Of a stretch of 64,000 bases of DNA, positions 43,461-64,000 are shown piece by piece. Both the position numbers and the translations under genes were made by a program. The DNA comes from Tepidiformaceae bacterium (GTDB lineage Bacteria > Chloroflexota > Dehalococcoidia > Tepidiformales > Tepidiformaceae): contig OZ220739.1 of assembly GCA_965116915.1 (NCBI GenBank), forward strand, positions 630,864 through 694,863, given 5' to 3'. Numbering within the stretch: the stretch's first letter is position 1; each line of letters begins with the position of its first letter. Below the pieces are notes generated by a model. It worked only from the letters and a program-made list of their open reading frames with translations. It did not search any database and was not told the DNA's origin.

Positions 43461-43655
43461 GTGCATATGGCAACGTCACCGGAACTGGGTGAGAGTGAAC
43501 TCGAGAAAGTTCGGGATCTCTTAGATCGCGCGACTGGGGAGGAGCCCGGCGCCCCCGAGTCCCCGCCAGCTGACCGCACATTGACCCTCTTGTCGAAGCG
43601 GGACGACTTGCGGACCCTGGTCGGGCGGATGATAGCCGATGCGCTTCTCGATTGA
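43461..43655 (+). CDS. Small hypothetical ORF (62-64 aa) leading the SMC-SIR2 operon
   Basis: GTG 43461 or ATG 43467. Its 3' end overlaps the ATPase ATG (43639) by 17 nt. Short and acidic, so its coding status is uncertain. Confidence 0.35.
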   Translation: MHMATSPELGESELEKVRDLLDRATGEEPGAPESPPADRTLTLLSKRDDLRTLVGRMIADALLD

Positions 43656-46952: not shown

Positions 46953-48495
46953 TGTGCTGTGCCTGCTATCCGAGCTGCTAGGGGATCCGGAGGAGGACGA
47001 TCGCAACACATCCGTTGTGCCCGTTGTGATCGATGACTTCGCCGGACATGGCGATCTCGTGCGGGCCGCTGCGCACGCTGTCGGGGCTTCGCTAATCGTC
47101 GCCTCGGATGTCGTAGATGGGGTCCGTGGAAGACGCGATCACACGCTGAAGGCCCGCATCGAGGAGTACCTACGGGTTCCGCGTTCGGGGGGCGAAGACT
47201 CTCGAGTCTCCATCCTGGCGGACCAAGGCATCGTGCATGCGAGGATCGACGACCAGACCGAACTCGCGAGCAGATCCGAGAGAGAGGTTGCTGGGCTAGC
47301 TTCAGCTCTGTTCTCAGAAGAACTGCAGACGAGCAGCCTTGCGTTCATTGTCTACAACGAGACCGTACTGGACGACGAGTGGGCCGAAGCCATCTGGCGC
47401 CTCTTCGGCAGCATCGATGGGACGCGGTTCCGGGCGGTCAAGCGCTTCATCTTGCTCATTGAGCGATCTGGCGAGCACACGCCGGATCACCATCTTGACT
47501 CCGAGCCTACCGTCCAGTTCTTCGTTCGGTCGTCGGGACTGACGCGCCGGAAGCCGTGGCTCGTAGACCTTGCCGAAGTCCGCTACATAGCGGAGCAGGC
47601 TGCCAGCAATGGCCTCGTCCTGTTCCTCGGGGCCGGTTTCTCGAGTTCGTCGGGGCTTCCGCTCGGCAACACACTTCGCGACGATGCGCTGCGAGCATTC
47701 CTAGCTATGCCAGAGGCAGGGTTCGACGAGCTCGCTTCGGCGTTCTTCGAGTACCTCCGGGCCAACAGACGTCTGCTCGAGGTCGAGCATCAGATGCCAT
47801 CCGACGAGTTCAACAGCCAGCTCACGCTTGAGCGGGTCCTCCGCGAAGAGATCTGGAGGAGCGGTGCCGACGATAGTCCGACACTGCGTGGTTTCGAGAA
47901 CATGAACGACATTGCTTTGAAGAACAGAGGTCCCGCCGTCGCTGGCCTGCACAACGTCTTGAGGCTCATTCCCAGGACTGTCGTGATCACTGTGAACTTC
48001 GACACCCTCGTAGAGGCTGAGGACGGCGATGTGCACACGATGGTCACAGAGCAAGAGTTCAGGGACGGCCGGGACTACCTGGATACGTACCTCGGCGAAC
48101 CCGACAATCCCGTCCCCGTCTTGAAGCTCCATGGTTCAATTCGGTCGAGAGAGACGATCATTGCCACGGTCGACCAGACCGCTCAGGGTCTATCCACAGA
48201 GAAGGAAGACTGCATTCGTGCCGTCCTCGAGACCAACCGCAAGGTGCCATGGGTCTACGTCGGATACAGCATGCGCGACCCGGATCTTTGGGGCATTCTC
48301 GAATCCCGGCTCGTCGCTGATCGTGCCGACGAATACTGGGTTAGCCCATTCGAGGATCCGAACGCTTTCGAGTGGTCCGGGTTGCACCGGCAGTTTGGTC
48401 AAGATGGGCGGACGTTCTGGCAGAGATGCATCACGCTGACTGCCGATAGGTTCTTCGAGCAGCTCCTAGCTGCCTGGGCTGCACAGCACGACTAG
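46939..48495 (+). CDS. SIR2-family (SIR2_2-type) protein with a ~210-aa unknown N-terminal domain
   Basis: GLVLFLGAGFSSSSGLPLGNTL, VITVNFDTLVE and VLKLHGSIRS follow the defence-type SIR2 pattern (GAG.S...G.P ... N.D ... KLHGS). TTG start at 46939; alternatives lie nearby. Confidence 0.8.
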   Translation: METRDVLCLLSELLGDPEEDDRNTSVVPVVIDDFAGHGDLVRAAAHAVGASLIVASDVVDGVRGRRDHTLKARIEEYLRVPRSGGEDSRVSILADQGIVHARIDDQTELASRSEREVAGLASALFSEELQTSSLAFIVYNETVLDDEWAEAIWRLFGSIDGTRFRAVKRFILLIERSGEHTPDHHLDSEPTVQFFVRSSGLTRRKPWLVDLAEVRYIAEQAASNGLVLFLGAGFSSSSGLPLGNTLRDDALRAFLAMPEAGFDELASAFFEYLRANRRLLEVEHQMPSDEFNSQLTLERVLREEIWRSGADDSPTLRGFENMNDIALKNRGPAVAGLHNVLRLIPRTVVITVNFDTLVEAEDGDVHTMVTEQEFRDGRDYLDTYLGEPDNPVPVLKLHGSIRSRETIIATVDQTAQGLSTEKEDCIRAVLETNRKVPWVYVGYSMRDPDLWGILESRLVADRADEYWVSPFEDPNAFEWSGLHRQFGQDGRTFWQRCITLTADRFFEQLLAAWAAQHD

Positions 48496-49812
48496 CCGCT
48501 CGCTCAAGGCATGCTGGTGCCGAACACCATTATTGACCCACCTGGCACCGCGATGCCGGATAGTACTCACGTTCACGGGCCGCAAGCCGAGCTCTTGAGC
48601 AAGCTGCGCCAGCAGCCCAGGCGTGTCGATGTACACGCCGTAAGGCGCACTGTCACCAACTACGAGGGCGATCCGTGCGCCGGGCCGTACGCATTTGCGC
48701 ATGTTCACGAGCACGCGGCTCATACCTTCAAAGTATGGCCCGATCACCCGATCGTACTCCTTGCCTCGGGGCCGCCGCCTGCGTTCCGCCTCTAAGCGAC
48801 TGCTGAGAGATTCGAGGACCGATCCAGTGTGCGGTGCTATGGCAGCCACGCGCGCCATCGACTCAGAGGCCGCAGCACTGCGGGCCTGCTGAGTCGATGC
48901 CGTGAGCATCCCGGCTCTAACCCGCTCAACCATCTCGGACCAAGTGCGAGCTACCCCCCAAAAGTAGAGCTCAAGCCGGGTTGCATCAGCGTAGTCGAAG
49001 TTATTGAGGTAAGGGGGCGATGTCACGACTGCGTCGGCGGGTTCATCTCCGAGGACCCGAACCCAGTCCCCGAGTCGTCGAGCATCCCCGCGCAGCACAA
49101 TTGACCCTGACTCACGGGACGACTCGCGAAGGTCGGCCGCCATCCACTCCGCCCTTCGCAGAAACGCTCGCACCGGCTGGGCGATCCGTGGCTTCCTTCG
49201 GACCGCGGGGCGCTGGTAGGGCCAACGAACCTGGACGCTTGCGCAGTCCCGCAGAGCACCTAGCAGGGACCATTTGAGATACCGAGTTGTCGCTCTACGG
49301 GGATGCGCCTTCAATTGGTCCCGGATGCTGACCAGTTCGCGCAGGGAGTCCTCGTCGAAGCTGCGAGCCACCAGATCCGTCTCGCGCGAGATGTCCGCCT
49401 CAAGAATGTCGCAAGCAACGCGCTGCGCGTCGTCAACGATGCGCTCCGGCTTCGCGAAGGCCTGAGTCTTGAGCTGTGCCAACTCGGCAATCTCCGGGTG
49501 CACCTCGATACCGGCGTACCGGTATCCCTGCTCAGCCCCAGCTCTCCAGCCAGTTGCAGCGCCGACAAACGGATCAATGAGTAGATCACCGGGTCGTGCG
49601 GCCACAGCCTGTAGCGCAGCCCCGAGGGCTGTCGGCGAGAACCCTGCGGGATACCGAAACCAGCGATCGAAGGGCACCTGCCGCGGACCGTTGGAAGCTC
49701 CACCACTGCTTTTAAAATTCACCGCGGCGCTCCTAGTCCCGCCACGGCGAATAATATGGGATGCTCCGCGTTTCCTCCAGTCTGCAGCAAGAACCCCTGC
49801 ACCGTCCGTCAA
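48466..49812 (-). CDS. DNA methyltransferase (N6-adenine or N4-cytosine; motif I before motif IV)
   Basis: AdoMet motif LLIDPFVGAATGW and catalytic VVTSPPYLNNFDY. The 3' end overlaps the SIR2 gene 3' end by 30 bp (convergent). The start is uncertain (TTG 49812 or GTG 49722). Confidence 0.75.
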   Translation of the reverse strand: MTDGAGVLAADWRKRGASHIIRRGGTRSAAVNFKSSGGASNGPRQVPFDRWFRYPAGFSPTALGAALQAVAARPGDLLIDPFVGAATGWRAGAEQGYRYAGIEVHPEIAELAQLKTQAFAKPERIVDDAQRVACDILEADISRETDLVARSFDEDSLRELVSIRDQLKAHPRRATTRYLKWSLLGALRDCASVQVRWPYQRPAVRRKPRIAQPVRAFLRRAEWMAADLRESSRESGSIVLRGDARRLGDWVRVLGDEPADAVVTSPPYLNNFDYADATRLELYFWGVARTWSEMVERVRAGMLTASTQQARSAAASESMARVAAIAPHTGSVLESLSSRLEAERRRRPRGKEYDRVIGPYFEGMSRVLVNMRKCVRPGARIALVVGDSAPYGVYIDTPGLLAQLAQELGLRPVNVSTIRHRGARWVNNGVRHQHALSERLVVLCSPGS

Positions 49813-50055
49813 CTGAGACCGGGGGGGATCTAGGTTCTCTTGCTAATCGATCGGCCTAGGCACGGCAGCAAGTGCCCGACGGAGGAGGCGTGCTGGCACC
49901 CATGCAGCTGTGTTGCCTCCTCGAGGGGCGCCCTGCCCTAGCCGGATCGATCAAGACCCTCGCGCGCGTTGTTACCCAGTCCAAGCCAGGTCGCGCATCC
50001 ACACGCGGCTGTTACCCTGAGATGCGTTCCCTACTACTAACCAAGGGGGTCGAAC

Positions 50056-50439
50056 ATGTCATCTCGCCGACCGACAAAGCAGGGCGGGGAAGAGAGAGGG
50101 CAAGAGGCCGACTACGACGCTTGGTTGGAGGAGGCCGATGCGCGCAGCGCTCAGCTTGAGAGCGTTGTCACGGTACTTCATGCCGAGTTGGACAAACTTG
50201 CCCGCAAGTCGCCGACCGGGCAGGTGAGCGATCTGATGGTTCAGCGAGTCAACAAGGCCATTCGCGAGTCACACGCCCTCATGGACCGGGAAGGCGACGA
50301 CTTTCTCCAAGAGGTGACTGAGTTCATCGCGGCCGGCGACAACCCTGAGAACCGAGACGTGCTTCTTGTCCTCGCGGAGCTGAAAGCTGCCTTGTCGCGT
50401 TTTCGTTCCGGGCACAGAGCCGACTGGCTTCGGCACTAA
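50056..50439 (+). CDS. Hypothetical helical protein (127 aa)
   Basis: ATG preceded by AAGGGGG. Ends 1 nt before the next gene start. No family recognised. Confidence 0.55.
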   Translation: MSSRRPTKQGGEERGQEADYDAWLEEADARSAQLESVVTVLHAELDKLARKSPTGQVSDLMVQRVNKAIRESHALMDREGDDFLQEVTEFIAAGDNPENRDVLLVLAELKAALSRFRSGHRADWLRH

Positions 50440-50440
50440 C

Positions 50441-51883
50441 TTGGCTCTACTGAACCAAGACTTCGGGCTTCCTTTTGGCCAAATTGAGGTCGATTTTGTA
50501 GTTCCCGATCTCACTCAGGACTTGCCTCTCTGCATTGATCCTTTTCTGCTTTACCGTAGCCAAGATCCGGAGTTACGCAATCTTCACCAGCAAGTCATTA
50601 GCGTCTTTAATCACGGCATAGAACTCTTCAAGTTGGGCAAAACTCAGGACCTTGCTAGGCTAGTCCAGTTTCCGGAGGTTGATGAGATCGGCTTTGGCTA
50701 CTCTGAAGGGGCTATTCGTGGACGAGGTCTAGGCCAGACCATGAACGGTATCTTGGTCGAGCTTCTAGGAAGCGTTGGGGAGATATTTGATCGAGGGATT
50801 CGACATATCGAAGAGCTTCAGTTGCTTTCGGTTCGCATAGGGCCAGACCTTGTGAGCGACACGGTAGCCAACTTGATGAAGGATTTTCTTGTCCAATACA
50901 CACAAAGGCAATCCGAGCTGCACGGCATACCAGTCAGTTCGGGCGTGCCGGTAAATCACTTCTTTGACTTCGATAGTTTCGAGTGGTCAGACGGATACTT
51001 CGATCTGCCACGAAACCCCAACTCCGGGCTGCCGGTGCTCTTGGTACCCCGGCGTGTCGTCCGCCTACTTCCCTGGATAAACTATGCTGACTACCAACGG
51101 AATGAATTCCGCGAGTTCCTAAAGCCCAAGGCACCGCCGTCGCAGCGACGGCGACTGGAACCCGTGGGTGAACCGCTAGATCTTTCCTCCCGCGCAGGCA
51201 AGGCGACAACGTACAAGCCAGAGGTAGTCCGAATTACGCGTCGCAATCTTGAACTTGTCGACAAGTATGTTGAGCGTAAGGAGCGCGAGAGCGCAGGCGC
51301 CGAACCGACACTGCCTCCCGGTCGGTCCGAGACTGCCGCCGTAAGAGAGGAGGGGAACCGCCTGCTCGAGGAGCTTAGGCAGTTACCGCCGGGTCGGGAA
51401 GCTGCCACTGACTACCAGCAACACGTGCTCCGAATTCTGACGTTTGTCTTTGGGCCAGAGTTGACCGACGGGAGGCTTGAGGAGGCGACCGTGCACGGCA
51501 CGGAGCGCCGAGACATCATTTTCACAAACGAGTCGACCAAGTCGTTCTGGATGTATGTACGACAGCATCACGGATCCATTTTGCAAATGTTCGAATGTAA
51601 GAACACCAAAGGCCTGAATACGGCGGACCTGAATCAGACAGCAACCTACTTGGGCGCTCGATTGGGGACGCTTGGAATTGTTGTTACCCGGACAGCACCG
51701 GCAAAGAGTGTCTTGCTAAAGGCCTACTCGATTCATAACGACTCAGCGGGAGAAAGCCGAAAGACAATTCTCATCCTTTCAGACGATGATCTCGGCAGCC
51801 TAGTGCTGGCACGCCAACGGGGAGAGCCGCCGTCGAGGGTCGTTCAGAAGGTATACCGGGACTTCAAGCTCAGTTGCCAATAG
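50441..51883 (+). CDS. Hypothetical protein with a C-terminal PD-(D/E)xK nuclease-like motif (480 aa)
   Basis: TERRDIIFTNESTKSFWMYVRQHHGSILQMFECKNTKG gives a D ... E-x-K arrangement. TTG start. Divergent from the methyltransferase gene. Confidence 0.6.
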   Translation: MALLNQDFGLPFGQIEVDFVVPDLTQDLPLCIDPFLLYRSQDPELRNLHQQVISVFNHGIELFKLGKTQDLARLVQFPEVDEIGFGYSEGAIRGRGLGQTMNGILVELLGSVGEIFDRGIRHIEELQLLSVRIGPDLVSDTVANLMKDFLVQYTQRQSELHGIPVSSGVPVNHFFDFDSFEWSDGYFDLPRNPNSGLPVLLVPRRVVRLLPWINYADYQRNEFREFLKPKAPPSQRRRLEPVGEPLDLSSRAGKATTYKPEVVRITRRNLELVDKYVERKERESAGAEPTLPPGRSETAAVREEGNRLLEELRQLPPGREAATDYQQHVLRILTFVFGPELTDGRLEEATVHGTERRDIIFTNESTKSFWMYVRQHHGSILQMFECKNTKGLNTADLNQTATYLGARLGTLGIVVTRTAPAKSVLLKAYSIHNDSAGESRKTILILSDDDLGSLVLARQRGEPPSRVVQKVYRDFKLSCQ

Positions 51884-52144
51884 CTCTGCTCACTTGCAGT
51901 GGCTGCACCAAGTGCCGCAGGAGCCCGCCCTGCCGCTGAACAGCCGAAGGTGGAGGCGGGCCGACAGACGGCGTAGCCACCCGCTTCTTGGCAGGGTTTC
52001 TGGAACGCCAACGTAGGGGTAGAGATGTGGCGTTGCCTTGTGCACGACATCGCCAGGGGGCGCAAGTTAACGCACGAGAGGGCGCATACAGGCGCCTGAA
52101 GGGGGGCCACCACTTGGTGTGGTAGCCCCCCGTATCCGCCTTGG

Positions 52145-52942
52145 TCAACCTGCGCCGGCCAGCACTCCCTCGCGCTCGCGGTCCCGCGCCCACTCGAAGA
52201 GCGACAGCGTGGGAGCCTCACCGCGCCGCCCGCGCGGTGGCTCCTCCGGCTCCCCGGCCATGAACTCCGCCCACGAGAACAGCGACCGTTGCAGCCCCGG
52301 GGCTTCGTCGTCCACGATGGCCGCGACTGTCACCGTGGGCTCCGCCACCGGCGCCGGCTCGGGCGTACGCCAGCCCTCGTCGACCAGCAGCGCCTCGGCC
52401 TCGGCCGCTACCTGCTGGGCCTGAGCGAAGACCGACTCGACCGAGCCGGCGTCCTCCTCGCCCACGACGATCTTCCTGGCGAGGGCGAGCATGAGGTCGT
52501 CGCCGTTGTCCCCGTAGGCGGCGAGACCGTCCTCGGGCAACTCACCCTCGACGGCGAGCGACGACTGCAGCTTCTGCGCCACCAGCTTGAGGGCGTCCGC
52601 CTGCAGGGTGTTCCGGTATGCCATGAAGACGACCTGGACGGGCTCGGTCTGGCCGATGCGCCAGGAGCGCCGTGACGCCTGCCTCATCGTGTAGACCGAG
52701 TAGTCGGTCTTCGCCCATACGATAGTTAGGAACTCCACCAGGTCCACCCCGTTCTGCATCAACGGCGCCCTGCGAACCGCTCTCCAAGCTGCTGCTCCGA
52801 TGTTGCCTGCGTCGACGGCGGCTCCGATCTCACGCGCCTGCCCTTCCGGGCCTTGAACGCAGAGGATCAGCGCTGCCTCGTCTCCGCAGGGGCCGACCCC
52901 CAAAGGTGACGCAGCGCCCCATAGCCGACTCGGACGCTCCAC
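52145..52942 (-). pseudogene. 3' portion of an SNF2-like helicase (third copy), with no 5' half
   Basis: Downstream of the core (52694-52705) the translation DYSVYTMRQASRRSWRIGQTEPVQVVFMAYRNTLQADALKLVAQKLQ... is near-identical to the intact gene. Upstream of the core it is only loosely helicase-like (PLMQNGVDLVEFLTIVWAKT versus PRLVQTGLDLVDFPTIAWYET). The shared motif CTGTATGCGCCCTCTCGTGCGTTAA follows the stop, as it does after 6397. Confidence 0.8.
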
Positions 52943-53142
52943 ACGTCGACAACGTCGGGGTACCGCGACCGGAGATCACTGGCAGCCGCAAGCAGATCCT
53001 CTGCGACAGCCCAGCCGCCGCTGTTGACGTCGATGGCGACGTAATCGCCGTCGTGGTCGACCTCGACCTGAGCGCGAATGTAGCGCTCGTAGATCGCTTC
53101 TCCCAGACGGGCTGTCTCTTCGGTGGGTCGGCGCACGGCCAT
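52867..53142 (-). CDS. Small hypothetical protein (91 aa)
   Basis: ATG at 53142 within the longer ORF 52867-53430. The sequence MAVRRPTEETARLGEAIYERYIRAQVEVDHDGDYVAIDVNSGGWAVAEDLL... looks like a compact conserved small protein. Its 3' end overlaps the helicase-like ORF in another frame. Confidence 0.45.
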   Translation of the reverse strand: MAVRRPTEETARLGEAIYERYIRAQVEVDHDGDYVAIDVNSGGWAVAEDLLAAASDLRSRYPDVVDVWSVRVGYGALRHLWGSAPAETRQR

Positions 53143-53611
53143 GGCAACTCTCCCCTGACGAGGATAGCGCCCCCGGCAATCCCATCCAGCGCTGGTGTGA
53201 CGTATAGCTCCGTCATCTCGAGTCTCCAGGCAGGTGCTTCGAGCAGGACGACAGCTCCTGCACCGGGGACGCCGGCCGCTCCGCTCCGACACCAGCCCCA
53301 CCGTGGCCGTGTCGCAGCAACACAAGGACTGTCGGCCCCGAGGTGATGGCGGCCGCGCGCCTTCCTGGCCGGCGAACGAGTTGCCATCCTTGAGGCCGTG
53401 GCTCCGCTGGTCCGGTCTCTCGTCTTGCACGCGCTCCCAGCCCCTGGGCGTGGCTCGATTGGAGTCAAGCGGTCCTGGACGGCGCGTTCGGCAGTCGCTG
53501 GCTGGGGGCGGTCTTTGTAGCCGGCGAGATCGACGGTCCCCCGGTAGGCAAGACCCCCCCCGAAATCTTGGAAAACGTCCTATTGAGGAATTTTACTCAG
53601 TAGGGAGTATC

Positions 53612-54877
53612 ATGGTCCTGATGAACGCATTCCAACGCTCAGGCGTTGACACCCTGGCCGAACGTCTCGACGAACCCCCGAGACGGCTGATCGCCGTGTT
53701 CGGACCTCGCCAGACCGGCAAGACCACGATGGTTCGTCAGGCGCTGAGCCGGATTAATCGGCCGAGTCTGTATCTGGCTGTCGATGAACCGGAGTCCCGT
53801 TCTCCCCGCATCAGCGAGAGTGAGCCTTCGGGAGACACCGCGCCAATCGGTCAAGAGCGTGATGGGGCTTGGTTGGCCGGCATCTGGGAGGACGCTCGGC
53901 GGCGGGCGGAGCAGTCCCCCCAGGGCCTCGTGCTCGTGTTCGACGAGATCCAGAAGGTCCCCAACTGGTCCGACACCGTCAAGGGGCTGTGGGACGCCGA
54001 CCGCGCTCAGGGCTGCCCGCTTCATGTTGTCGTCCTCGGTTCCGCGCCGCTTCAGATCCAGTCGGGGTTGAGCGAGAGCCTCGCCGGCCGCTTTGAGTCG
54101 ATACGCGTCACGCACTGGTCGTTCCCTGAGATGTCCACGGCGTTCAACTTCACGCTCGACGAGTTCATCTTCTTCGGCGGCTACCCGGGGGCGGCAAGCC
54201 TCATCGCGGATGAAGAGCGCTGGCGGGACTACATCCTGTACGGGCTGGTTGAGCCGCACCTCGAACGCGACCTCCTCGCCATGACCCGGGTCGACAAGCC
54301 GGCACTGCTCAAGAACCTCTTTGAGCTGGGGGCCTCCTACTCCGGGCAGATCCTCTCGTACACCAAGATGACAGGGCAGCTTCAGGATGCCGGCAACACG
54401 ACGACGCTCGCGCACTACCTCGACCTCCTCTCCACGGCCGGCCTGCTCACGGGGTTGGAGAAGCACTCTGGCAGCGCACAGCGGCGCAGGCGGTCCAGTC
54501 CCAAGCTCAACGTGCTCAACACGGCCCTGATGACCGCTACCTCCGGCTACTCCTTCGCGGAGGCCAGGGCCGACCGCACCTTCTGGGGGAGACTGGTGGA
54601 GAGCACGGTCGGCGCCCACCTGGTCAATACCGCTCGCCCGGGGCTGGATGTCGGTTACTGGCGAGACGGTTCCGACGAGGTCGACTTCGTGCTGGGGCGC
54701 GCGGGCCGCGTGCGCGCGGTCGAGGTCAAGAGTGGCGACCGTCGCCCGAACGACCGTGCCCTGAGGGAGTTCGAGGGCAAGTTTCGGGCGCCGCCATCGC
54801 TCGTGGTTGGTGAGAACGCGATACCGCTCAACGAGTTCCTCTCCGCTCCCGCCTGGGATTGGTTCGAACAGCCATGA
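53612..54877 (+). CDS. AAA ATPase of the AAA_14/DUF4143 type
   Basis: Walker A FGPRQTGKTT, Walker B LVLVFDEIQKVPNW, and a C-terminal DUF4143-like region (VGAHLVN...GYWRDGSDEVDFVL...AVEVKSG). ATG at 53612 preceded by GGGAG. Confidence 0.8.
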   Translation: MVLMNAFQRSGVDTLAERLDEPPRRLIAVFGPRQTGKTTMVRQALSRINRPSLYLAVDEPESRSPRISESEPSGDTAPIGQERDGAWLAGIWEDARRRAEQSPQGLVLVFDEIQKVPNWSDTVKGLWDADRAQGCPLHVVVLGSAPLQIQSGLSESLAGRFESIRVTHWSFPEMSTAFNFTLDEFIFFGGYPGAASLIADEERWRDYILYGLVEPHLERDLLAMTRVDKPALLKNLFELGASYSGQILSYTKMTGQLQDAGNTTTLAHYLDLLSTAGLLTGLEKHSGSAQRRRRSSPKLNVLNTALMTATSGYSFAEARADRTFWGRLVESTVGAHLVNTARPGLDVGYWRDGSDEVDFVLGRAGRVRAVEVKSGDRRPNDRALREFEGKFRAPPSLVVGENAIPLNEFLSAPAWDWFEQP

Positions 54878-57800
54878 CGCACATCGTCGCGCGCACCTGC
54901 ACGGAGCTATCTCCGAACAGGGAGCGTCACGCTCCCGAGCCACAGCCCCAACCGCTGAGCGCCTACCGGGCCGAACCGGCGTATGTCCTGTTGGGCGACC
55001 CAGGTCTGGGAAAGACCACTGCCCTTCAAGGCGAATACGAGGCGATGGGAGAGTCCGCCTGCTTCATCACTGCCCGCAACTTCCTGACCCTCGATCCCGA
55101 CAGCCATCCGGAGTGGCGGGAGAAGACGCTCTTCATTGACGGCCTCGACGAGGTGCGTACGGGCTCCGCCGACGTGCGAACGCCCCTCGACGCCATCCGC
55201 GGCCGCCTGGACAGCCTTCGATGCCAATCCTTCCGGCTGTCCTGCCGGGAAGCCGACTGGTTGGGCGACAACGACCGGCGGGCACTGGAACTGGTGGCTC
55301 CAGGGCGCAGGGTCACGACCCTGCGGCTCGATCCCCTCACCGGCTCCGAAGTGAAGCAGATCCTCGCCGGCCACGAGAAGATCGACGACCCCCAGGCCTT
55401 CATCGACGAAGCGGAGAGCCGCGGCATTGACAGCCTCCTCGCCAATCCGCAGACCCTCAATCTGCTGGCCGATGTGGTGGGCGGGAAGGGAACGTGGCCC
55501 GAGAGCCGCCTCGAGACCTTCGAACTGGCATGTGGTGAAATGGTTAGGGAGCACAACGAGGAGCACTCGTTCGGGACTCAGCCACCGCCCCGGGACGAGC
55601 TGCTGGACGCCGCCGGCTACCTGTGCGCCGCTCAACTCGTGACGGGCGCCGCCGGGTTCTCCCTCGGCCCCGCAGAGGCCTCCGCTGACTGCATTCCCCT
55701 CAACGACTGTGACTACCCTGCTCCGGACGCCCTGCAGCATGCGCTGGCCACACGGCTGTTCAAGGCGGGCGAGGAGAGGCACTTCCTTCCGGTGCACCGC
55801 CATGTGGCGGAGTTCCTGGGTGCGCGTTACCTCGCCCAACGCATCGCCGGAGGCCTGTCGGCGCGACGCGTGCTGGCCCTGATCAGCGGTGCCGACGGGG
55901 TGGTGGTGACCGAGATGCGAGGGCTCTCGGGCTGGCTGGCGGCGCAGTGCGGCGACGCCCGGAGCCTCCTCATCGATCGGGACCCGGTAGGGGCCGCGCT
56001 GTACGGCGACATCCATGGCTTTTCGACCGAGGAGAAGGGCGCCCTCTTGAGGGCGCTTGGCCGGCGCGAGGTGCTCGGTCCCCTCTGGCGGGAGGTCGCC
56101 TCGTTCGAGATGGGAACCACCTTCGGTGCCCTCTCCTCTCCGGACATGGCGCCGGCGATCGACGCCATCCTGTCCGACCCGTCCCGCGATAGCGACCATG
56201 AAGGGCTCGTCCGGTTCTTGCTGATCCTGCTGTTGCAGGGCTCCCCTGACGCCAGGCTGGCTCCACGCCTGCTCTCCGTGGCACGGGACGAGAGCTGGCC
56301 GCCTCGAGTGAACTCCTTCGCCCTCGATGCGTTCCTCCGCGTCGCGAGCGGCGGCGCCGACCACACCGCCGAACTCAGGGGCCTGTTGGATGCGGTTCAC
56401 GACGGCGCTGTCCCGGACCCGGACCACGAGATGAGGGGCGCACTGCTGAGCCACCTCTATCCGGGGGAGGTCTCCGCGTCCAGCGTCTGGGACCACCTGA
56501 TTGAACGCGGCACCAGCCATTTGGTCGGACACTACTGGTCGTTCTGGAACCAGCACCTCCTGGGTCGGTCGTCAGACCGGGACGTGGGTGACCTTCTCGA
56601 CAGTCTCTACCAGCATCGATCCGACGTGGTCCCCGCCCTGGAGTCTCACCACTGGGAGTCCCTTCCCCTGGACCTGCTGGCTCGGGGACTGGAAGCCCAG
56701 GGGGACAGCGTCCCGCTACCGCGCCTCTCCAACTGGCTACGTGCAGCGGCACCGCCGCTCCGGTGGAGCTTCGGCCCCGACAACGAGTCCCAGCGCCGGG
56801 TCCGTGGCTGGCTGGAGCGGCGCCCCGAGATCCAGAAGGCCGTGCTCATGGAGGGGCTGAAGCGGTGCCCCGACGGCGATCGCTACCACCACGAGTCCTA
56901 CGAGGCCTGGGGCGCGCTTCACGGGAGCTCGCTGCCACCTGACTTCGGGCTGTGGTGCCTGAACCGGGCCGTCGACCTTGCGCCTGTGCACGCCAGGGCA
57001 GCGGAGGATCTCCTCTTGAGGGCGTTTCAAGCCTGGAGGGAGAAGCGCGACGACGAGGGCCTGTCCCTTCCTGTCCTGACGGACGGTGTGCGTGGGCATG
57101 CGCCACTGGAGGCGAGGCTGGCGGCCCTCGTCGAGGGCATGGTGTCCTCCGAAGCGGAGGCGGTGCGCGACAGGACTGAGCAGGACGAGGCAAGGGACGA
57201 ACAGGCACGCGAACGCGAGGAGGACATCGCCTACGTACGCTCCCATGCCGAGGCCCTTCGCGAGAACCGAGCCCCCCTGTGGGTCGTCGGCGAACTGGGC
57301 AGGGCGTACTTTCTCTTCCCACGCGGCCCGGCGACGCATGCTTCTCCCGTAGCGGCCCTCTCGGCATTTCTGGGTGACGACCCAACCCTGGTCGAAGCGG
57401 CCTTGGCCGGCCTGCGAGAGACCTTGTGGCGGAACGACGTGCCGGACGCTGACGAGGTCGTCCGGCTCAAGGAGACGTCCATGCGTCACCGCCTTGACTT
57501 CGCGGTTCTCGCCGGCCTGGACATCCTCCATCGGGACGATCCCACCCGGCTCGAGGACATCACCCAGGATCAGATCGAGACGGCTCTGGCGTTCTACTAC
57601 TGCACACCGGCGGGGTTTGCGGCCACCCCGGCGTGGATCGAGGAGTGGACGGAACGCGTTCCCGACGTGGTGGCGGACGTAGCAGCCCGATGCACGCTCT
57701 CCGCAATCCGGCGCGGCGATGGCTACTCTCCGGCCCTTGAGACCATCAGGCGCCTTGGCGGCCACCCATCCCTGAGGCATGCCACCGCTCTCAGGCTCCT

Positions 57801-58962
57801 TGAAGGGGTGCCGGCCGGAGCGGGCCTGAAGGCGCTGGACACCCTTGACAGTCTGCTCTGGGTCGCTCTCGCCGATCCCGACCGGTCGGCCCTTCTCGAC
57901 CTCGTCGGCGCGAAGCTCTCCCTCAAGAGCATGGGGGTGTCTCAGCGAGTGCGCTGGCTGGCTGCAGGCGCTATCGCCGCCCCGGAAGCCTATGCCGCGG
58001 AGTTGAAGACCTTTGTCGGTGAGGGCCAGCGACGCGTCCGGGCACTGGCGGCCTTCTTCGACTCCCGTGACGCCATGGAGCCCCTGCCGTTCCCGAGCGA
58101 GGAGCGGTGCGCCCCGGTCCTTGAGGCCCTCATCTCTCTCATGGGCCGCTCGTTCGCACGAGACGAGCCCCTCGGGTCTGGCGTCGTGACCATCGAGATG
58201 ACGACCGCTGGACACATCAGGCGCCTCATCCAGCAACTGGCCTCGCTCCCCGGAGACGACGCCCTGCAGGCGTTGGACTCACTCGTTGCCGACGCCGGGC
58301 TCGTCCACTGGCTCGATCACCTCGAGCAGGCGCGCGACGACCAGCGAGTCGTTCACCGGGATGCAGCCTACGGCCACCCGGACCTTGGTCAGTTCAACCG
58401 TGCCTTGAAGGAAGGGGAGCCGGCCAACGTCGGTGACCTTGCCGCACTGCTCCACGACCGACTGACCGCGGTGGCGTCAGGCCTTCGTGCCACCAACACG
58501 GATGACTGGCGGCAGTACTGGAATGAAGACCCGCAAGGTCGACCAGAGAAGCCCAAGCATGAGGAGTCCTGCAGGGACGCACTCCTTTCCCAACTGCGCA
58601 GGACACTCCCGGACGGTGTGGATGCACAGCGCGAGGGGCAGCACTCGGGCGACAAGCAGTCCGACATCCGCGTCTCCTTTGAGGGGTTTAGCGTGCCGGT
58701 AGAGATCAAGAGGGACACGCACCCTAAACTCTGGAGCGCCATCAGGAATCAGCTGATCCAGCAGTACACGCGCGACATCGAAACGGGTGGGTACGGCATC
58801 TACCTGGTGTTCTGGTTCGGTGAGGGGAGCGTGCAATCTCCGCCGACCGGAACGCGCCCGACAAGTCCCCAGGAGTTGCAGGAGCGCCTGGAAGCGACGT
58901 TGACGGAGGACGAAGCCCGCAAGATTGAAGTGTTCGTGGTTGACGTCAGCCGGGTGACCTAG
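54874..58962 (+). CDS. STAND/NACHT-like NTPase with helical repeats and a C-terminal PD-(D/E)xK-like domain (1362 aa)
   Basis: ATG 54874 overlaps the upstream TGA (ATGA). Walker A LLGDPGLGKTT and Walker B TLFIDGLDEV. About 900 aa of Leu/Ala-rich helical repeats. The C-terminus has SDIRVSFEGFSVPVEIKRD (about 58660-58720). Confidence 0.8.
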   Translation: MTHIVARTCTELSPNRERHAPEPQPQPLSAYRAEPAYVLLGDPGLGKTTALQGEYEAMGESACFITARNFLTLDPDSHPEWREKTLFIDGLDEVRTGSADVRTPLDAIRGRLDSLRCQSFRLSCREADWLGDNDRRALELVAPGRRVTTLRLDPLTGSEVKQILAGHEKIDDPQAFIDEAESRGIDSLLANPQTLNLLADVVGGKGTWPESRLETFELACGEMVREHNEEHSFGTQPPPRDELLDAAGYLCAAQLVTGAAGFSLGPAEASADCIPLNDCDYPAPDALQHALATRLFKAGEERHFLPVHRHVAEFLGARYLAQRIAGGLSARRVLALISGADGVVVTEMRGLSGWLAAQCGDARSLLIDRDPVGAALYGDIHGFSTEEKGALLRALGRREVLGPLWREVASFEMGTTFGALSSPDMAPAIDAILSDPSRDSDHEGLVRFLLILLLQGSPDARLAPRLLSVARDESWPPRVNSFALDAFLRVASGGADHTAELRGLLDAVHDGAVPDPDHEMRGALLSHLYPGEVSASSVWDHLIERGTSHLVGHYWSFWNQHLLGRSSDRDVGDLLDSLYQHRSDVVPALESHHWESLPLDLLARGLEAQGDSVPLPRLSNWLRAAAPPLRWSFGPDNESQRRVRGWLERRPEIQKAVLMEGLKRCPDGDRYHHESYEAWGALHGSSLPPDFGLWCLNRAVDLAPVHARAAEDLLLRAFQAWREKRDDEGLSLPVLTDGVRGHAPLEARLAALVEGMVSSEAEAVRDRTEQDEARDEQAREREEDIAYVRSHAEALRENRAPLWVVGELGRAYFLFPRGPATHASPVAALSAFLGDDPTLVEAALAGLRETLWRNDVPDADEVVRLKETSMRHRLDFAVLAGLDILHRDDPTRLEDITQDQIETALAFYYCTPAGFAATPAWIEEWTERVPDVVADVAARCTLSAIRRGDGYSPALETIRRLGGHPSLRHATALRLLEGVPAGAGLKALDTLDSLLWVALADPDRSALLDLVGAKLSLKSMGVSQRVRWLAAGAIAAPEAYAAELKTFVGEGQRRVRALAAFFDSRDAMEPLPFPSEERCAPVLEALISLMGRSFARDEPLGSGVVTIEMTTAGHIRRLIQQLASLPGDDALQALDSLVADAGLVHWLDHLEQARDDQRVVHRDAAYGHPDLGQFNRALKEGEPANVGDLAALLHDRLTAVASGLRATNTDDWRQYWNEDPQGRPEKPKHEESCRDALLSQLRRTLPDGVDAQREGQHSGDKQSDIRVSFEGFSVPVEIKRDTHPKLWSAIRNQLIQQYTRDIETGGYGIYLVFWFGEGSVQSPPTGTRPTSPQELQERLEATLTEDEARKIEVFVVDVSRVT

Positions 58963-59501
58963 AGCGATCGAGGGGTAGGGTCCGGTGGCTGATGCCCGCA
59001 GTCGGGCTGACAGGAGGAGCGGACGATCGAGCAAGGCGCAGCGTCCCTTGATGAGGTCGGGAGGAAACTGCAGGCCCTCGGGCCTGCCGATGTACGCCTG
59101 CTGGTGCACCGAGATGCTGATGAACTCTCCCTGGTCACGGTTGTCCTCAGCGCGGGCCTGGACACCGCCGGCCTGGCCGACAAGACCTACGACTGCGGCG
59201 AGGTCGCGCGGCCCGTCGACGATCCACTTTGGGGTGCTCCGTGTCGTCGCCCAGCTTGCGGCGGAGCCTACTGACGATCGTGCGCATGGGGCGGGTGTCG
59301 CCGTCGCTCCTATCGCCCCAGACGCGCTTCAGCAGGTGCTGGTGTCCGCATCCGCCCGGCGTCGGCCGGGTAGTGGAGTCCTACCCACGCCGTGTGCGCT
59401 TAGCGTCATTCTGCGGCAGGCGGGGCCGTGTCTGCGCGGTCACTGCTATGGGTGACCCACCCGAACGGCGGGGTACTGCGCTCACACGCCCGGCTATGGT
59501 G

Positions 59502-59708
59502 CTACCCCACTTCTTGTTCGGCGAGTTGATGCTCCACCCAGGTCGACAGTCGCCGCCACTCCGCGATGCTCATCCTCATGGAGCGCTGATAGTCGGCGCC
59601 GGGGTAGTGCGTGTTGCTGCGGCTCAAGAGGTAGATCAGAATCTCTTGACGATCGACCTTCACGCGGAGATCCCAAACCGGAATCGCCTTCGCCGTCAGT
59701 TCGGCCAT
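59502..59708 (-). CDS. Hypothetical small protein (68 aa)
   Basis: ATG at 59708 within ORF 59502-59993. No family recognised. Confidence 0.35.
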   Translation of the reverse strand: MAELTAKAIPVWDLRVKVDRQEILIYLLSRSNTHYPGADYQRSMRMSIAEWRRLSTWVEHQLAEQEVG

Positions 59709-59956
59709 GCTCACCCCCGCCGGAGCTCGCGTTGGCCTCACGCCGTCGCACCTCCGGTTTAAGTCGTTCTTCGGGTGGCATCCTATCACTCCATTGCGGC
59801 CCCATCGGCTCCCAGCAACCCCGCCCGGGATCCCTCTCGGTCGGGTCGCGTCCCCCTGGGCATGCGGAAGCCGACGCAGGGCGATAAAATGCGCGAGCGG
59901 GGCCGCCGGTGTGCGCCGCATCTGGCTTGAGAGCTTGCAGAGCCGGAGTCGTGACC

Positions 59957-60181
59957 ATGACCGACCTTCTACAGCAGGCCTTCGACAGGGCATCGGAGTT
60001 GCCGCGAGGCGAGCAGGATGCGTTCGCCCGGTTCCTACTGGCCGAGCTGGATGCGGAGCAGCGCTGGGACGAACTGCTCGACCGCCCCGAGTCGCAGGAC
60101 ATGCTGGAGCGGATGGCGGACGAAGCGATCGGGGCTCACCGGGCGGGGCGGACGGAGCCTCTGAATCTGAGCCAATTGTAG
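59957..60181 (+). CDS. Type II antitoxin (partner of a RelE/ParE-superfamily toxin)
   Basis: MTDLLQQAFDRASELPRGEQDAFARFLLAELDAEQRWDELL is typical of short helical addiction-module antitoxins. It lies directly upstream of the toxin remnant. Confidence 0.6.
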   Translation: MTDLLQQAFDRASELPRGEQDAFARFLLAELDAEQRWDELLDRPESQDMLERMADEAIGAHRAGRTEPLNLSQL

Positions 60182-60183
60182 GG

Positions 60184-60452
60184 GTGCGTTCCTACACGGT
60201 GGCGAGCTTCTGGCGCGCCTATCGCCAACTCCCGGACGCCGTGAAGCAGCAGGCGTGCGACGCGTACCGGTCTTCCTGATGAACCCGCAACATCCGGGCC
60301 TCAACTTCAAGCGCGTGGGAAGACGACGACCGGTGTATTCGGTGCGCGTGAGCAGGAACCATCGGGCACTGGGCATTCTCGAGGACGGCGATATCGTCTG
60401 GTTCTGGATTGGCCCACACGACGAGTACGACCGGTTGCTGAGGCGCGCATGA
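60184..60452 (+). pseudogene. RelE/ParE-superfamily toxin interrupted by a frameshift
   Basis: Frame 1 reads VRSYTVASFWRAYRQLPDAVKQQACDAYRSS-stop (60184-60279). Frame 2 continues FLMNPQHPGLNFKRVGRRRPVYSVRVSRNHRALGILEDGDIVWFWIGPHDEYDRLL (to 60452). Together they form one typical toxin. Confidence 0.7.
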
Positions 60453-60580
60453 CGCCTTACCGGCGTAAGCATCGCGCCGCACGAGAGGCGCACGGCCCGG
60501 ACAGCAAGAAAGGCTCCACACAGGGACGGGAGCCGGGGACACCGCCGTAACCGGCGATGCCCCCGCGTCCGTCCCGCCTG

Positions 60581-62830
60581 TCAGGCGGCCAGCGCCCCCT
60601 CCTGTTCCCGCTCAAGCGCCCACTCGAAGAGGGAGAGCGTGGGAGCCTCGTCGCGGCGCTTGCGCCTCGGCGGCTCCTCCGGCTCCCCGGCCAGGAACTC
60701 AGCCCACGAGAACAGCGACCGCTGAGGCTCCGAGTCCACGGCCTCCGCGACGGCCTCGGCGGCCACCGTGGCACTGGCACCTACCGGCTCTGGCTCCGGC
60801 GCGTGCCAGCCCTCATCGACCAGCAGTGCCTCGGCCTCCGCCGCAACCTGCTGAGCCTGGGCGAAGACCGACTCCACCGAGCCGGCATCCTCCTCGCCCG
60901 CGACGATCTTCCTCGCCAGCGCAAGCATGAGGTCGTCGCCCTCGTCCCCGTAGGCGGCGAGGCCGTCCTCCGGAAGCTCGCCCTCGACGGCCAGCGAGGA
61001 CTGCAGCTTCTGCGCCACGAGCTTGAGGGCGTCCGCCTGCAGGGTGTTCCGGTAGGCCATGAAGACGACCTGGACGGGCTCGCTCTGGCCGATGCGCCAG
61101 GAGCGCCGCGATGCCTGCCGCATGGTGTAGACGGAGTAGTCCGTCTCGTACCAGGCAATCGTAGGGAAGTCCACGAGGTCGAGGCCTGTCTGCACCAACC
61201 GCGGGTGGCAGACGAGCACGTCGACGCCCTCCTCAACGCGCTTCGCCACCCACGCCTCGCGGCGCTCGGGCGGAACGGCGTCGGCCTTCATCACCGCGAC
61301 GTTGAAGCCGTGGCGGGAGAGGAACTCCTCCATGCGCCCCGTGATGTCGCGCGTGCCCGTGTGGGTGGCGTAGACGAGCACCCGCCGCCCCGCCAGCCGC
61401 TCGGCGGCGACGAGGTCGACGAGCGCCCGCTCCTTCGGGTAGAGCCGCTCCTCGGAGAGGGGCGGCACCTGCACGAGCAGCTCCTCGCTCTCCGGGTCGA
61501 AGACCGTCTCGCCCCGGGTGCAGCCGTCCGGGTAGGCGAGGAGCGTCTGCAGATAGGTGGCCAGCAGGCGCTTCGAGCCCTTCGCGAGAAGGTCCGTCAG
61601 CGCCGCCCTGAGCGTCCGGAAGAGCTCGTCGTAGGCGCTCCGCTGGGAGAAGCCGGTGCCGTCCGCTTCCGTCTCCATGTCGGAGAGGAGCACGCGCTCC
61701 TCGTAGGGCGGGAGCCCGGCAGCGACGTCCGAGAGCCTGAGGAAGACGGAGTTGCCGATGAGGTGGAAGAGGGCGGCGGGGGCGAGCCCCGGGCGCTCGC
61801 GGATGACCTTGCGGTACTTCCGCCTGCGGCTCGTGCGGCCGTCCTCGAGGGACTCGCCGTCGTCGCGCCCGATGGTGTGCTCGACGAAGCCGTAGCGCTC
61901 GATCCAGCGGCTCTCCTCCCCGCGCCCGAACTCACCCCGGATCTCCGGGCTGAACCGGTAGAGGAGGTGGAAGAGCGTCGAGGAGTAGCCCCCCATGAGC
62001 GTGCCGCTCAGGCTGAGGGACTTGCCGCAGGCGTCGGCGAGGATGCCGGCGGCGATGCCCTGGGCGGAACCCCTTCCTTTGTATTCATGGGCCTCGTCCC
62101 CGATCAGCAGGTCGAAGAAGCCCCGCAGGTGGTGCTTCACGTAGTCGCTGAGCGGGTAGCGCTTCGGCCCCGAAGGGTCCGCCTTCCAGAGGGTGGAGCC
62201 GCACTCGTCACAGGTGCGCTTCCTGCGGGCGAGGTCCTTCTGCGTGAGGGGCAGCCCGTCCTTGTCGACGATCGGCTCGAAGCAGTTCGGGCAGCAGGGC
62301 ACCCGGAACGGTTCGAGGGTTTCCTCGTTGCGGACGAGCCTGCCGTCGGCCGTCGCCCAGCGCTCAACCACCGCCGGTAGCCAGCGGTAGGAGAGCTTCG
62401 CGCGTTCCCTGGACATGACCGCGAAGAGCGGCCCTGGCCCGTGCGAGAGGCGCAGCTTCTCGAGGTCGGTGATGGAGGCGACGACGGCGGCGCGGGCGTC
62501 GGGCACCGTCTCCTCCACCTCCCGCTTCCACTTGCGGGTGAGGTGGGGCGGGCAGAGGACGAGGATGCGGCGGAAGCCGGCCAGGTGGGCGGCGGAGGCC
62601 GCGATGAACGTCTTGCCCGTGCCCATCTCCCCGACGACGGTGGTGCCGCGGTGTTCCTCGAGGGAGAGGGCGGCGCCGCGGATGGCGTCGGCCTGCGCCC
62701 CCAGGGGCGTGCGCAGCAGGTGCGGCAGGGGCTTCCCGCAGTCGGAGGGCCGGTAGCGGGGTGGGTAGGACTCCACCACCCGTTCGGCGATGGCGTCGCG
62801 GTAGGTGTCGATGAATTCAGCCAGGTCCAT
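60581..62830 (-). CDS. SNF2-like helicase with a Zn-ribbon insert (750 aa, intact)
   Basis: ATG 62830 preceded by GGAGAAGGAG. Walker A GEMGTGKT, LIGDEAHEYKG, CCPNC...CDEC insert, motif VI QASRRSWRIGQ. The ORF upstream of 62830 is Arg/Gly/Pro-rich and was not called. Confidence 0.88.
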   Translation of the reverse strand: MDLAEFIDTYRDAIAERVVESYPPRYRPSDCGKPLPHLLRTPLGAQADAIRGAALSLEEHRGTTVVGEMGTGKTFIAASAAHLAGFRRILVLCPPHLTRKWKREVEETVPDARAAVVASITDLEKLRLSHGPGPLFAVMSRERAKLSYRWLPAVVERWATADGRLVRNEETLEPFRVPCCPNCFEPIVDKDGLPLTQKDLARRKRTCDECGSTLWKADPSGPKRYPLSDYVKHHLRGFFDLLIGDEAHEYKGRGSAQGIAAGILADACGKSLSLSGTLMGGYSSTLFHLLYRFSPEIRGEFGRGEESRWIERYGFVEHTIGRDDGESLEDGRTSRRRKYRKVIRERPGLAPAALFHLIGNSVFLRLSDVAAGLPPYEERVLLSDMETEADGTGFSQRSAYDELFRTLRAALTDLLAKGSKRLLATYLQTLLAYPDGCTRGETVFDPESEELLVQVPPLSEERLYPKERALVDLVAAERLAGRRVLVYATHTGTRDITGRMEEFLSRHGFNVAVMKADAVPPERREAWVAKRVEEGVDVLVCHPRLVQTGLDLVDFPTIAWYETDYSVYTMRQASRRSWRIGQSEPVQVVFMAYRNTLQADALKLVAQKLQSSLAVEGELPEDGLAAYGDEGDDLMLALARKIVAGEEDAGSVESVFAQAQQVAAEAEALLVDEGWHAPEPEPVGASATVAAEAVAEAVDSEPQRSLFSWAEFLAGEPEEPPRRKRRDEAPTLSLFEWALEREQEGALAA

Positions 62831-63036: not shown

Positions 63037-64000
63037 TCAGGCGGCGATGTCGGTGACCTGGCCGGTGTCCAGGTCGAGGGCGACGACGGTGGTGAGGAGA
63101 CGCTCGCGAAAAGTCTCCTTCGTGGGTGTGGTCTCGACGAGGTGCATCTCTTTCGAGGTGCGCCCCTTGACGAGGATGCGGCTGTCTCCGGCCTCCAGCT
63201 GGAGGTTGTCGAGGAAGCCCGCCGCCACGAGCATGGCCAGGTGGCCGCGCCGCAGCGGCATGAGCGGTCGCGTGCGCTGGTCCTGGGCGGGCCAGAGCAG
63301 GTCGGTGACGGCCGTGCTCGCCCAGAGCCCCGAGCGCCTCGCCTCGTCCGCCGCCGCCACCGGGTCGACGGTGCGGGTCGCGAAGAGCACGTCCCCCGCG
63401 GGCGTGGCCGAGGCCAGGTAGAGGGGGTAGCGCCGGGGAGCGAGCTCGGGAGCCTCTCCCGCCGCCCACCCGTGGATGCGCTCCTCGGCATGGGCGTCGA
63501 GGAAGATTTCACCCTTGCGGTAGCCCATCAGGACGACCTGGTCGTAGGCCTCGCGCTCCGGCTCGGGGAAGGCCCAGCAGTCGAGGCGCGCGAAGTGGGA
63601 GGCGAGGTACCTCGCCGACACCGCCAGCCGCTGCCGGGGCACGACGAGGACGAGCAGGCCGTCCTCCGCCAGGTAGCGGGTGCAGTGGGTGAGGAAGCTG
63701 TGCTCGACGCGCTTCTCCTCGCCCGAGTCCCAGTCATAAGGAGGGTTGAGGTAGAGGAGCCCGAAGGCGCCGTTGGCGATCGAGGTGGCGAAGAGGTCCG
63801 TCCCGAGCACGTGGTCGAGGCGGCTCTTCGCCATCTCGGCGCGCTCGGTGTGCAGTTCCACCCCGTACGTCTCCACGTCGGCCGCGTGTGGCTTCCTGAG
63901 GGCGGCCGCCAGCCGCACGAGGGCATCGCCCTCGCCGCAGCAAGGGTCGAGAACGCGGAGCGTTTCGTCCTTGCGGGCGTAGCCCGCGGGCGGCTGGATC
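63037..64000 (-). CDS. DNA methyltransferase (NPPY type), 5' end beyond the window
   Basis: GLLYLNPPYDW catalytic motif. The frame stays open to the window edge (..CCGEGDALVRLAAAL..). Lies 207 bp upstream of the helicase on the same strand. Confidence 0.8.
   Translation of the reverse strand, partial: IQPPAGYARKDETLRVLDPCCGEGDALVRLAAALRKPHAADVETYGVELHTERAEMAKSRLDHVLGTDLFATSIANGAFGLLYLNPPYDWDSGEEKRVEHSFLTHCTRYLAEDGLLVLVVPRQRLAVSARYLASHFARLDCWAFPEPEREAYDQVVLMGYRKGEIFLDAHAEERIHGWAAGEAPELAPRRYPLYLASATPAGDVLFATRTVDPVAAADEARRSGLWASTAVTDLLWPAQDQRTRPLMPLRRGHLAMLVAAGFLDNLQLEAGDSRILVKGRTSKEMHLVETTPTKETFRERLLTTVVALDLDTGQVTDIAA

Follow-up and report, generated by a model that had tools for sequence, protein, structure and literature searches.

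A second helicase 3' end in a layered cargo island of a Tepidiformaceae bacterium: a candidate attachment-site scar behind an intact gene

The subject of this work is a helicase gene whose 3' end recurs 8.4 kb away in a 64,000-nucleotide stretch of DNA (the window, G000:C1:630864-694863) from a Tepidiformaceae bacterium. The genome, G000, is a single contig of 3.08 Mb with 68.5% G+C. The helicase is the final gene of an 11.5-kb DNA-processing module that also encodes a CHC2/Toprim primase, a Rad52-like annealing protein, an SSB and a DUF6094 methyltransferase. This module is present twice in the genome, at 691449-702956 and 1642833-1655134, with about 90% identity between the copies, and it may be part of a putative integrated conjugative-type element. 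Orthologs of the helicase with 85-94% identity were found in 15 of the 24 other genomes of the same genus that were searched, often in several copies and with many fragments, and the relatives that carry it bear the names of Tepidiformaceae or Dehalococcoidia metagenome-assembled genomes. The features that concern us first all lie on the minus strand; positions are those of the window unless a genome position is stated:

63037-64000, minus strand: DUF6094 DNA methyltransferase, partner gene of the helicase (Pfam PF19587, E = 1.6e-22), truncated by the end of the window
60584-62830, minus strand: intact SNF2-like helicase gene, 749 aa from MDLAEF..., Pfam ResIII and Helicase_C, 100% self match in tblastn
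61130-61141, minus strand: attachment-site core in helicase codons 564-567, GACTACTCCGTC, with the crossover probably at the first GA
60497-60583, minus strand: the intact gene's stop codon and B-type tail, with a 13-bp G+C hairpin ahead of the conserved end ...GTGTCCGG (-56.9 kcal/mol, z = -3.5)
52706-52762, minus strand: Z arm (h5*), 57 nt or 19 codons, helicase-derived and decayed (LMQNGVDLVEFLTIVWAKT versus LVQTGLDLVDFPTIAWYET)
52145-52705, minus strand: displaced old helicase 3' end, well preserved, with the core GACTACTCGGTC (52705-52694), residues 564-749 and the stop codon
52062-52144, minus strand: A-type tail of this 52.7-kb remnant, a hairpin followed by ...TCGTGCGTTAAC (-48.1 kcal/mol, z = -4.0), next to cargo layer 2

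An earlier note, made from the sequence of the window alone, had described two copies of the helicase 3' end with about 90% identity after the core, and repeat search, alignment and tblastn all bear this repeat out. A direct repeat with 90% identity (52347-52646 and 60783-61082) is accompanied by two flanking blocks, among them 52156-52338 and 60586-60771 at 77-78%. The local alignment of both copies extends over 52072-52767 and 60504-61203, and residues 545-748 of the 749 match 52762-52157 on the minus strand with 82% identity. The split into a 90% and a 77% part after the core is not peculiar to this pair, as the same profile is shared by 39 of 39 other intact alleles, which are 87-92% identical to the window gene over the first 360 nt after the core and 65-80% thereafter. 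Note that the C-terminal tail of the protein (60584-60800 in the window) carries in all alleles the conserved motifs RSLFSWAEF and PTLSLFEWA, with hypervariable linkers between them.

The related sequence reported beyond both stop codons is likewise real. It consists of about 85 nt with a strong G+C hairpin, the stem sequences of which are different in the two copies. An alignment of 28 gene ends showed a hairpin in each tail and then a short conserved end, past which homology among all loci ceases, and matches to the B-type tail adjoin helicase ends in many genomes. A consensus terminator scan of the tails gave no match because no T-run stands behind the hairpins, which are visible by folding.

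The core begins at codon 564, the start of helicase motif VI. Alignment of eight sites from G000 revealed four site types around one core, GACTACTCGGTC, with their arms swapped. With H5 and H3 denoting the helicase sequence before and after the core, and a slash the junction, H5/H3 are the intact genes, X/H3 occurs at 5828 and at genome position 1626398, H5/rcY at 13955 and at genome position 1641312, and X/rcY at 24410. A second island at 1.63-1.66 Mb of the genome holds the same kinds of helicase pieces. The sites of this kind in the window and its recombinase gene are:

5690-6475, plus strand: attR-type scar, X arm joined at the core (5828) to helicase residues 564-749 and tail; helicase match 5828-6385
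13882-14123, minus strand: attL-type scar, in which the core (13955) links helicase residues 458-567 to the arm rcY; helicase match 14123-13955
24300-24587, plus strand: attP-type site X/rcY with the variant core GAGTTATCGGTC
20546-21946, plus strand: large serine recombinase gene (Pfam Resolvase, Recombinase and Zn_ribbon_recom), not the cognate of the helicase core

The DNA downstream of the scar at 5690-6475 is orthologous to that behind the intact helicase of the related genome G014. In G018 a canonical insertion splits the helicase; its attL at 33231 (...GAGACG GA GTTACCGGTT...) and attR at 57376 (...GGAGCC GA CTACAGCGTC...) are in direct orientation and 24 kb apart. A full large serine recombinase gene of 534 aa, with the N-terminus AIYARVSDKSQ, enters the X arm there and stops six codons past the crossover, so that integration would swap its last residues for helicase-derived sequence. 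The X arm is the C-terminal coding end of a serine recombinase gene; its reading as the C-terminus of a protease was rejected in favor of this one, and a long open reading frame through the G018 attR was rejected as a recombinase, being a frame artefact of the high G+C content. From the arm swaps in G018 and in the loci L115 and L075 we infer that the crossover takes place at the GA that starts codon 564, and on this pattern the core is read as a true site at which large-serine-recombinase elements attach. Between the recombinase of the window and the one entering the X arm in G018 the identity is only 29%, and a tblastn search of G000 for a cognate of the G018 type found none, returning only paralogs with 27-30% identity and three C-terminal stumps at X arms.

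Further observations were made on sites of this kind. In L138 (G018:C1:53001-60000, at 2655-4400) and in L139 (G015), the attP of the recombinase lies inside its own 3' coding end. Near 12915 in L031 (G011:C1:1727001-1746000), an otherwise complete helicase is without about 33 nt before the core (...CTGGTGG/AGTTACAGC...); with the left half of the attachment site gone, this could be an allele that escapes integration, or else a scar. A conserved sequence of about 60 nt, GGCTGAACAACACCTCGAAGGTGGTACTGYCTACCGTCAAGT, follows the protease stop codon at 5511-5650 of the window, at 11850-11910 of L115 and in L102, and adjoins X-type and Y-type attachment-site arms alike.

The 52.7-kb copy had been taken for a displaced old 3' end, and the state of its two parts upholds that view over a decayed duplicate: after the core it has the quality of a working gene, before the core it is old. 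With a conserved residue defined as one that is the same in at least 90% of 40 intact alleles, the post-core part (186 codons) has 1 of 117 conserved residues changed, no premature stop and a strong codon-position GC signal, versus 4 of 14-15 conserved residues changed in the Z arm (1/117 versus 4/14, Fisher's exact p = 4e-4). Three other remnants with an upstream arm of 35-66 nt show the same contrast between fresh and decayed, and pooling of the four yields 17/55 changes before and 7/468 after the core (p = 4e-13). Counts of frameshifting indels were set aside as alignment noise in the variable linker. These figures show that the H3 part of the remnant belonged to a helicase allele that was working until recently. 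Identity of the Z arm with the intact gene amounts to 65%, and its closest match among 79 intact alleles reaches 73%; over the same 57 nt, every one of these alleles has a partner of at least 86%. The fall in similarity before the core is thus real, but it is not the clean step that had been described, as similarity persists for 19 helicase-derived codons upstream. The possibility that the remnants spread as a lineage of their own was rejected: in a tree built from the 360 nt that follow the core, the fragments did not form a clade apart.

The DNA that adjoins the Z arm is informative as to what this arm may be:

52776-53142, minus strand: S pair, a 91-codon gene (53142-52867) and a clan AA (DTGF) aspartic protease gene reduced to a stump by internal deletion

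The small gene noted earlier in the interval is therefore present, but is actually one of a pair with this stump, which is fused in frame to the helicase remnant. The complete protease of G008 matches TIGR03698 (E = 2.3e-13), and in relatives (G005, G015, G008, G018) the S pair is the usual first neighbor behind the helicase tail. S pair and Z arm are joined to helicase H3 in both G000 and G008; in the latter the protease stop codon abuts Z, and Z runs on into H3. In the locus L091 the S pair and Z, 86% identical over 521 nt, run on into unrelated DNA, and in both G008 and L091 the switch after Z falls within 3 nt of the GA crossover. Z thus behaves as an arm with exchangeable partners, and the 52.7-kb copy is best read, from these junctions, as an attR-type hybrid Z/H3 whose junction coincides with the GA crossover or lies no more than a few bases from it. 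Among the remnants, five from different genomes have their 5' limit in common, at 55-66 nt before the core; in three of these the DNA upstream is unrelated.

The contrast in freshness bears on two other histories. If the locus had once held two complete tandem methylase-helicase modules, the second could have been removed up to helicase codon 545, ending near the core by chance. The module does occur twice in the genome, tandem arrays are usual for integrative elements in general, and the 5' limits of fragments in relatives are scattered between residues 481 and 726. Such a deletion would, however, leave both sides of the core equally fresh, which they are not (p = 4e-4), nor does it account for the common limit in five different genomes or for the Z arm and S pair joined to non-helicase DNA in L091. 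We therefore regard this history, which the earlier note had named as the one that would overturn its own proposal, as decidedly improbable; it does not fit the freshness step.

In the other history an old truncated copy is kept fresh by gene conversion, and its last 57 nt, at the edge of homology, escape and decay, mimicking a step. This would agree with a gradual loss of similarity around the core, with a remnant 3' part that is a patchwork of A-type and B-type sites, with the good preservation of nearly all remnants in all genomes (1-4 of 117 residues changed) and with the Rad52-like annealing protein that the element encodes. Comparison of the remnant with each of the two intact copies in G000 shows, however, 93-96 differences over about 566 positions and identical runs of at most 35 nt, so that its H3 part was not refreshed by the present intact copies; on this comparison, the remnant has undergone no recent gene conversion from either of them. 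X/H3 scars without any upstream homology are, moreover, equally fresh. A copy maintained in this way is very improbable.

How the gene upstream of the displaced end came to be intact was addressed by comparing alleles. Over the 5' 1.7 kb and across the core, the window gene is nearest to A-type alleles (the second copy in G000, G017 and G014), and its last ~150 nt and tail are of B type, as in G018, G008 and G011. As strict A/B informative sites occur only outside -682..+454, three-sequence tests were used; they placed the best A-to-B breakpoint at +410 to +452 in 7 of 9 cases, at +155 to +305 in the other 2, and never at the core. The B-type end co-occurs with the adjacent patch at 59319-59882 in G022 also, which indicates that the new gene end arrived together with new cargo. 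An insertion at the core that brought a replacement helicase end, as proposed previously, is therefore right in that the new end came with cargo, but not as to the point of exchange, since the gene is A-like across the core and switches only at +410 to +452. Set against a Campbell-type exchange, the insert does lie between direct copies and the switch falls within the shared segment, yet a freshness step at the core is unexpected for a distal crossover.

The 8.4-kb block between the two ends is shown by its parts to be a composite patchwork, which from the intact gene onwards consists of the B tail, a patch, an AAA-NACHT cassette, the patch T and the S pair:

59207-60496, no strand assigned: patch with weak coding signal and no family match, holding a 140-nt multi-copy repeat (59231-59368) and the segment 59319-59882
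53574-59207, plus strand: independently mobile AAA-NACHT defense cassette, with a DUF4143 AAA ATPase (53612-54877) and a NACHT protein (54859-58962)
53331-53501, no strand assigned: patch T, which has a counterpart of 78% identity in G014, 0.7 kb downstream of the intact helicase there

The segment 59319-59882 has a match of 89% identity in G022, close to a B-type helicase remnant. The AAA-STAND pair predicted for the interval was recovered as the DUF4143 AAA ATPase, which matches the PADLOC candidate PDC-S01 (E = 4e-160), and the NACHT protein, which is EruA-like (NCBIfam antiphage_EruA NF058535, 904 bits versus a cutoff of 1000). The cassette recurs with 74-88% identity in G014, G043, G005, G015 and G042, its limits coinciding with the ends of the operon; in G014 it stands behind an intact helicase, on the opposite side of T and without any remnant. 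As had been stated, the interval is without an integrase: family-profile searches found no recombinase domain in any open reading frame of 52763-60583. A toxin-antitoxin remnant suspected there is without support, as no open reading frame in 58985-60580 has a family match, and the notion of a single 8.4-kb element fails on the patchwork itself, with a cassette that moves independently and an S pair that normally follows the helicase.

These findings can be set against a single insertion, in which a recombinase acting in trans would have placed at the core one integrase-less element that brought along a helicase 3' end of its own as well as the tail, the cargo and the Z arm, and that shifted the old end 8.4 kb downstream. 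The freshness step at or near the core is exactly what this predicts, and no recombinase is present in the interval. The intact H5 and the remnant H3 share their nearest allele, the second G000 copy, and G021, G008 and L091 show an intact gene, integrase-less cargo and a remnant starting at or just before the core. Circles might form by looping out between the two H3 repeats, and the incoming end could itself have been A-like up to +410. What speaks against it is the A-like sequence across the core with the lineage switch at +410 to +452, the composite nature of the block, whose AAA-NACHT cassette is placed otherwise relative to T in G014, and the many layer junctions in relatives that lie off the core. 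The only recombinase tied to the core is, besides, a large serine recombinase whose cognate gene is missing from the genome, and in none of the loci seen is a tyrosine integrase tied to the site. To our knowledge, serine integrases pair attP with attB, or attL with attR given a directionality factor, and not attR with attB. The attR-like Z/H3 is thus not expected to recombine with attB, which favors a history in two stages over a single insertion; the latter we consider unlikely.

The best overall explanation, to which we assign a probability of about one half, is that of an attR-type scar, the 52.7-kb copy, lying in a stack of cargo, and of an intact gene re-formed by homologous exchange. The region just behind the helicase hairpin tail would be the variable cargo region of the element. 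In a first stage, site-specific recombination at the core would have made Z/H3. In a second, homologous exchange with a sibling module, either as a tandem collapse or as a Campbell-type crossover, would have restored the intact gene and brought with it the foreign terminal ~150 nt, the B-type tail and the cargo. Candidates for driving such an exchange are RecA and the Rad52-like protein that the element encodes, the role of the latter being presumed. As the cognate recombinase is absent from the genome, the layer would now be immobile or mobilizable only in cis. The stacking is of a known type, serial accretion at a recombination site, and not one new self-contained insert.

Several observations weigh against the scar and its two-stage history. 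The partner attL, in which H5 would be joined to the other arm of the Z element, was not found in the loci or in the genus, so that Z could be a truncated piece of helicase and not an attP arm; the partner arm of the Z site in L091 (P'') has no other occurrence among the loci or in the genus either, and two metagenome scans for the Z arm gave no match. Identity declines as a steep gradient, from 95% at 0..+66 to 82% at -33..0 and about 64% beyond, and in the G021 remnant the drop sits about 33 nt upstream of the core. Few reference alleles underlie the A/B assignment, and the gene family is mosaic, the remnant itself being a patchwork of A and B sites, and the re-formation of the intact gene by homologous recombination, though probable, is a deduction. 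Finally, no empty site or uninterrupted locus was found, and none of the other 27 genomes of the genus contains layer 2 (43400-52150).

Beyond the youngest block the island continues, as does the pattern of gene ends:

36440-36577, minus strand: shorter second helicase remnant with the last ~25 codons (residues 726-749, tblastn 36577-36504), stop codon and hairpin, 73-78% identical by blastn

This remnant, which starts at residue 726 and thus away from the crossover, bounds layer 2 (52061-36578) and layer 3. The remnants show the island to be a stack of at least three cargo layers, with the 8.4-kb block as the youngest. The layered island that had been proposed is accordingly real, and it recurs in relatives, always downstream and in direct orientation. 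Among 80 related loci taken with 10-kb flanks, 15 contain extra helicase 3' fragments, all of them downstream of an intact gene and in direct orientation. Many fragments begin at residues 562-565 or 55-66 nt before the core, others at residues 573-726, and H3 fragments are about twice as numerous as H5 fragments. In the three annotated arrays (G021, G008 and L091) no integrase was found in the cargo between gene and fragment. Judged by these fragments, layering behind the helicase is a trait of the family, and not every junction would have been made at the core. When the exact protein was looked up, the only records returned were two contigs of the same strain, both arranged in the same way. 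In L091, an IS110-family transposase is situated between the helicase remnant and the S pair (15400-16866), and a Uma2-family endonuclease gene is cargo between the intact gene and the remnant.

One may also imagine that the helicase 3' ends are kept as silent cassettes, and that recombination at the core or in the strongly conserved 360 nt behind it swaps the hypervariable C-terminal tail, with its two SLF-W-A motifs, together with the defense cargo. Such an array would amount to a programmed switching or storage system for the establishment module of a conjugative element. We regard this as a long shot.

The nearest described case is that of the ssrA island arrays of Dehalococcoides, a member of the same bacterial class. 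These islands follow one another in tandem downstream of the tmRNA gene, and a 20-bp direct repeat of the gene's 3' end delimits each of them; the enzyme that integrates them is a large serine recombinase of the CcrB-like type, and some that are without an integration module have been read as accreted cis-mobilizable elements (McMurdie et al. 2011, PMC3146451). As in the ssrA arrays, islands are stacked in tandem downstream of one target, are bounded by direct repeats of its 3' end and are in part integrase-less. Unlike there, the target here codes for a protein, the helicase, and resides within another mobile element, and the repeat measures 0.6 kb plus the tail; the canonical insertion, as seen in G018, splits the gene instead of restoring it. 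The recombinase family also differs and is absent from the genome, several junctions lie off the crossover, several element families with different left arms use one core, and homologous exchange seems to be involved. Held against the logic of targets whose 3' end is restored, as at tRNA or tmRNA genes, the locus has a junction off the crossover and a block without an integrase of its own (52763-60583).

Accretion is also familiar from ICESt1 and ICESt3, elements that are both integrative and conjugative (ICEs), and from the cis-mobilizable elements (CIMEs) at fda in Streptococcus thermophilus, where site-specific integration beside a resident element produces tandem arrays with internal att sites. 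The loss of recombination modules in CIMEs leaves integrase-less blocks between att sites, and excision has been shown by experiment. Our locus resembles them in its integrase-less blocks within tandem arrays; that system employs tyrosine integrases, and its att cores are short, identical and located in a chromosomal gene's 3' end, unlike the serine-type site described here. Garriss, Waldor and Burrus are said to have described, in 2009, hybrids that form between tandem SXT/R391 ICEs via an element-encoded lambda-Red-like system. Common to both cases would be single-strand annealing functions of the element's own and an exchange between siblings that shuffles cargo at hotspots beside conserved backbone genes, but SXT uses Bet/Exo and is not known to leave duplicated gene ends in the hybrids, whereas the element here has a Rad52-like protein and an SSB. 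In Bacillus subtilis, SPbeta in spsM and skin in sigK are serine-integrase insertions of single elements that excise during development to restore the gene. They share with our locus a coding gene that is split at a short core, its halves being carried by attL and attR; here, in contrast, several element families share the core, and the arrays retain an intact gene upstream of the displaced ends.

The locus does not reveal a new kind of mobile element. It does show defense genes piling up on a conjugative-type element of the poorly known Chloroflexota, with one codon of a backbone helicase as a landing site common to several recombinase-borne elements and a region behind the gene that grows layer by layer, each layer marked by a displaced gene end. 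Being fresh or decayed, such ends are time stamps that could order the acquisitions in defense islands. The tandem-island logic of the Dehalococcoides ssrA arrays is thereby extended to a protein-coding target within another mobile element, and element-encoded annealing proteins emerge as possible drivers of cargo exchange.

A few minor observations concern the wider setting. The AAA-NACHT pair is found in six genomes of the genus, in differing contexts. The 140-nt repeat at 59231-59368 has many copies across the genus, and in G000 it adjoins paralogs of a hybrid histidine kinase (genome 746458-746597 and 749983-750122). A second duplicated block of 8.8 kb, with 87% identity (genome 708295-717062 and 1690761-1699611) and large open reading frames of 563, 735 and 825 aa, lies near both helicase modules in a relative orientation that differs between them, and is likely another part of the same element. 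The helicase gene also has a second recurrent interruption site: several copies in which about 2.4 kb of inserted DNA breaks the gene at residues 250-256 occur in G011:C1 (2337615-2338382 with 2340773-2342281, and 1266575-1267342 with 1262691-1264184) and in G018:C1 (2507581-2508348 with 2510736-2512238).

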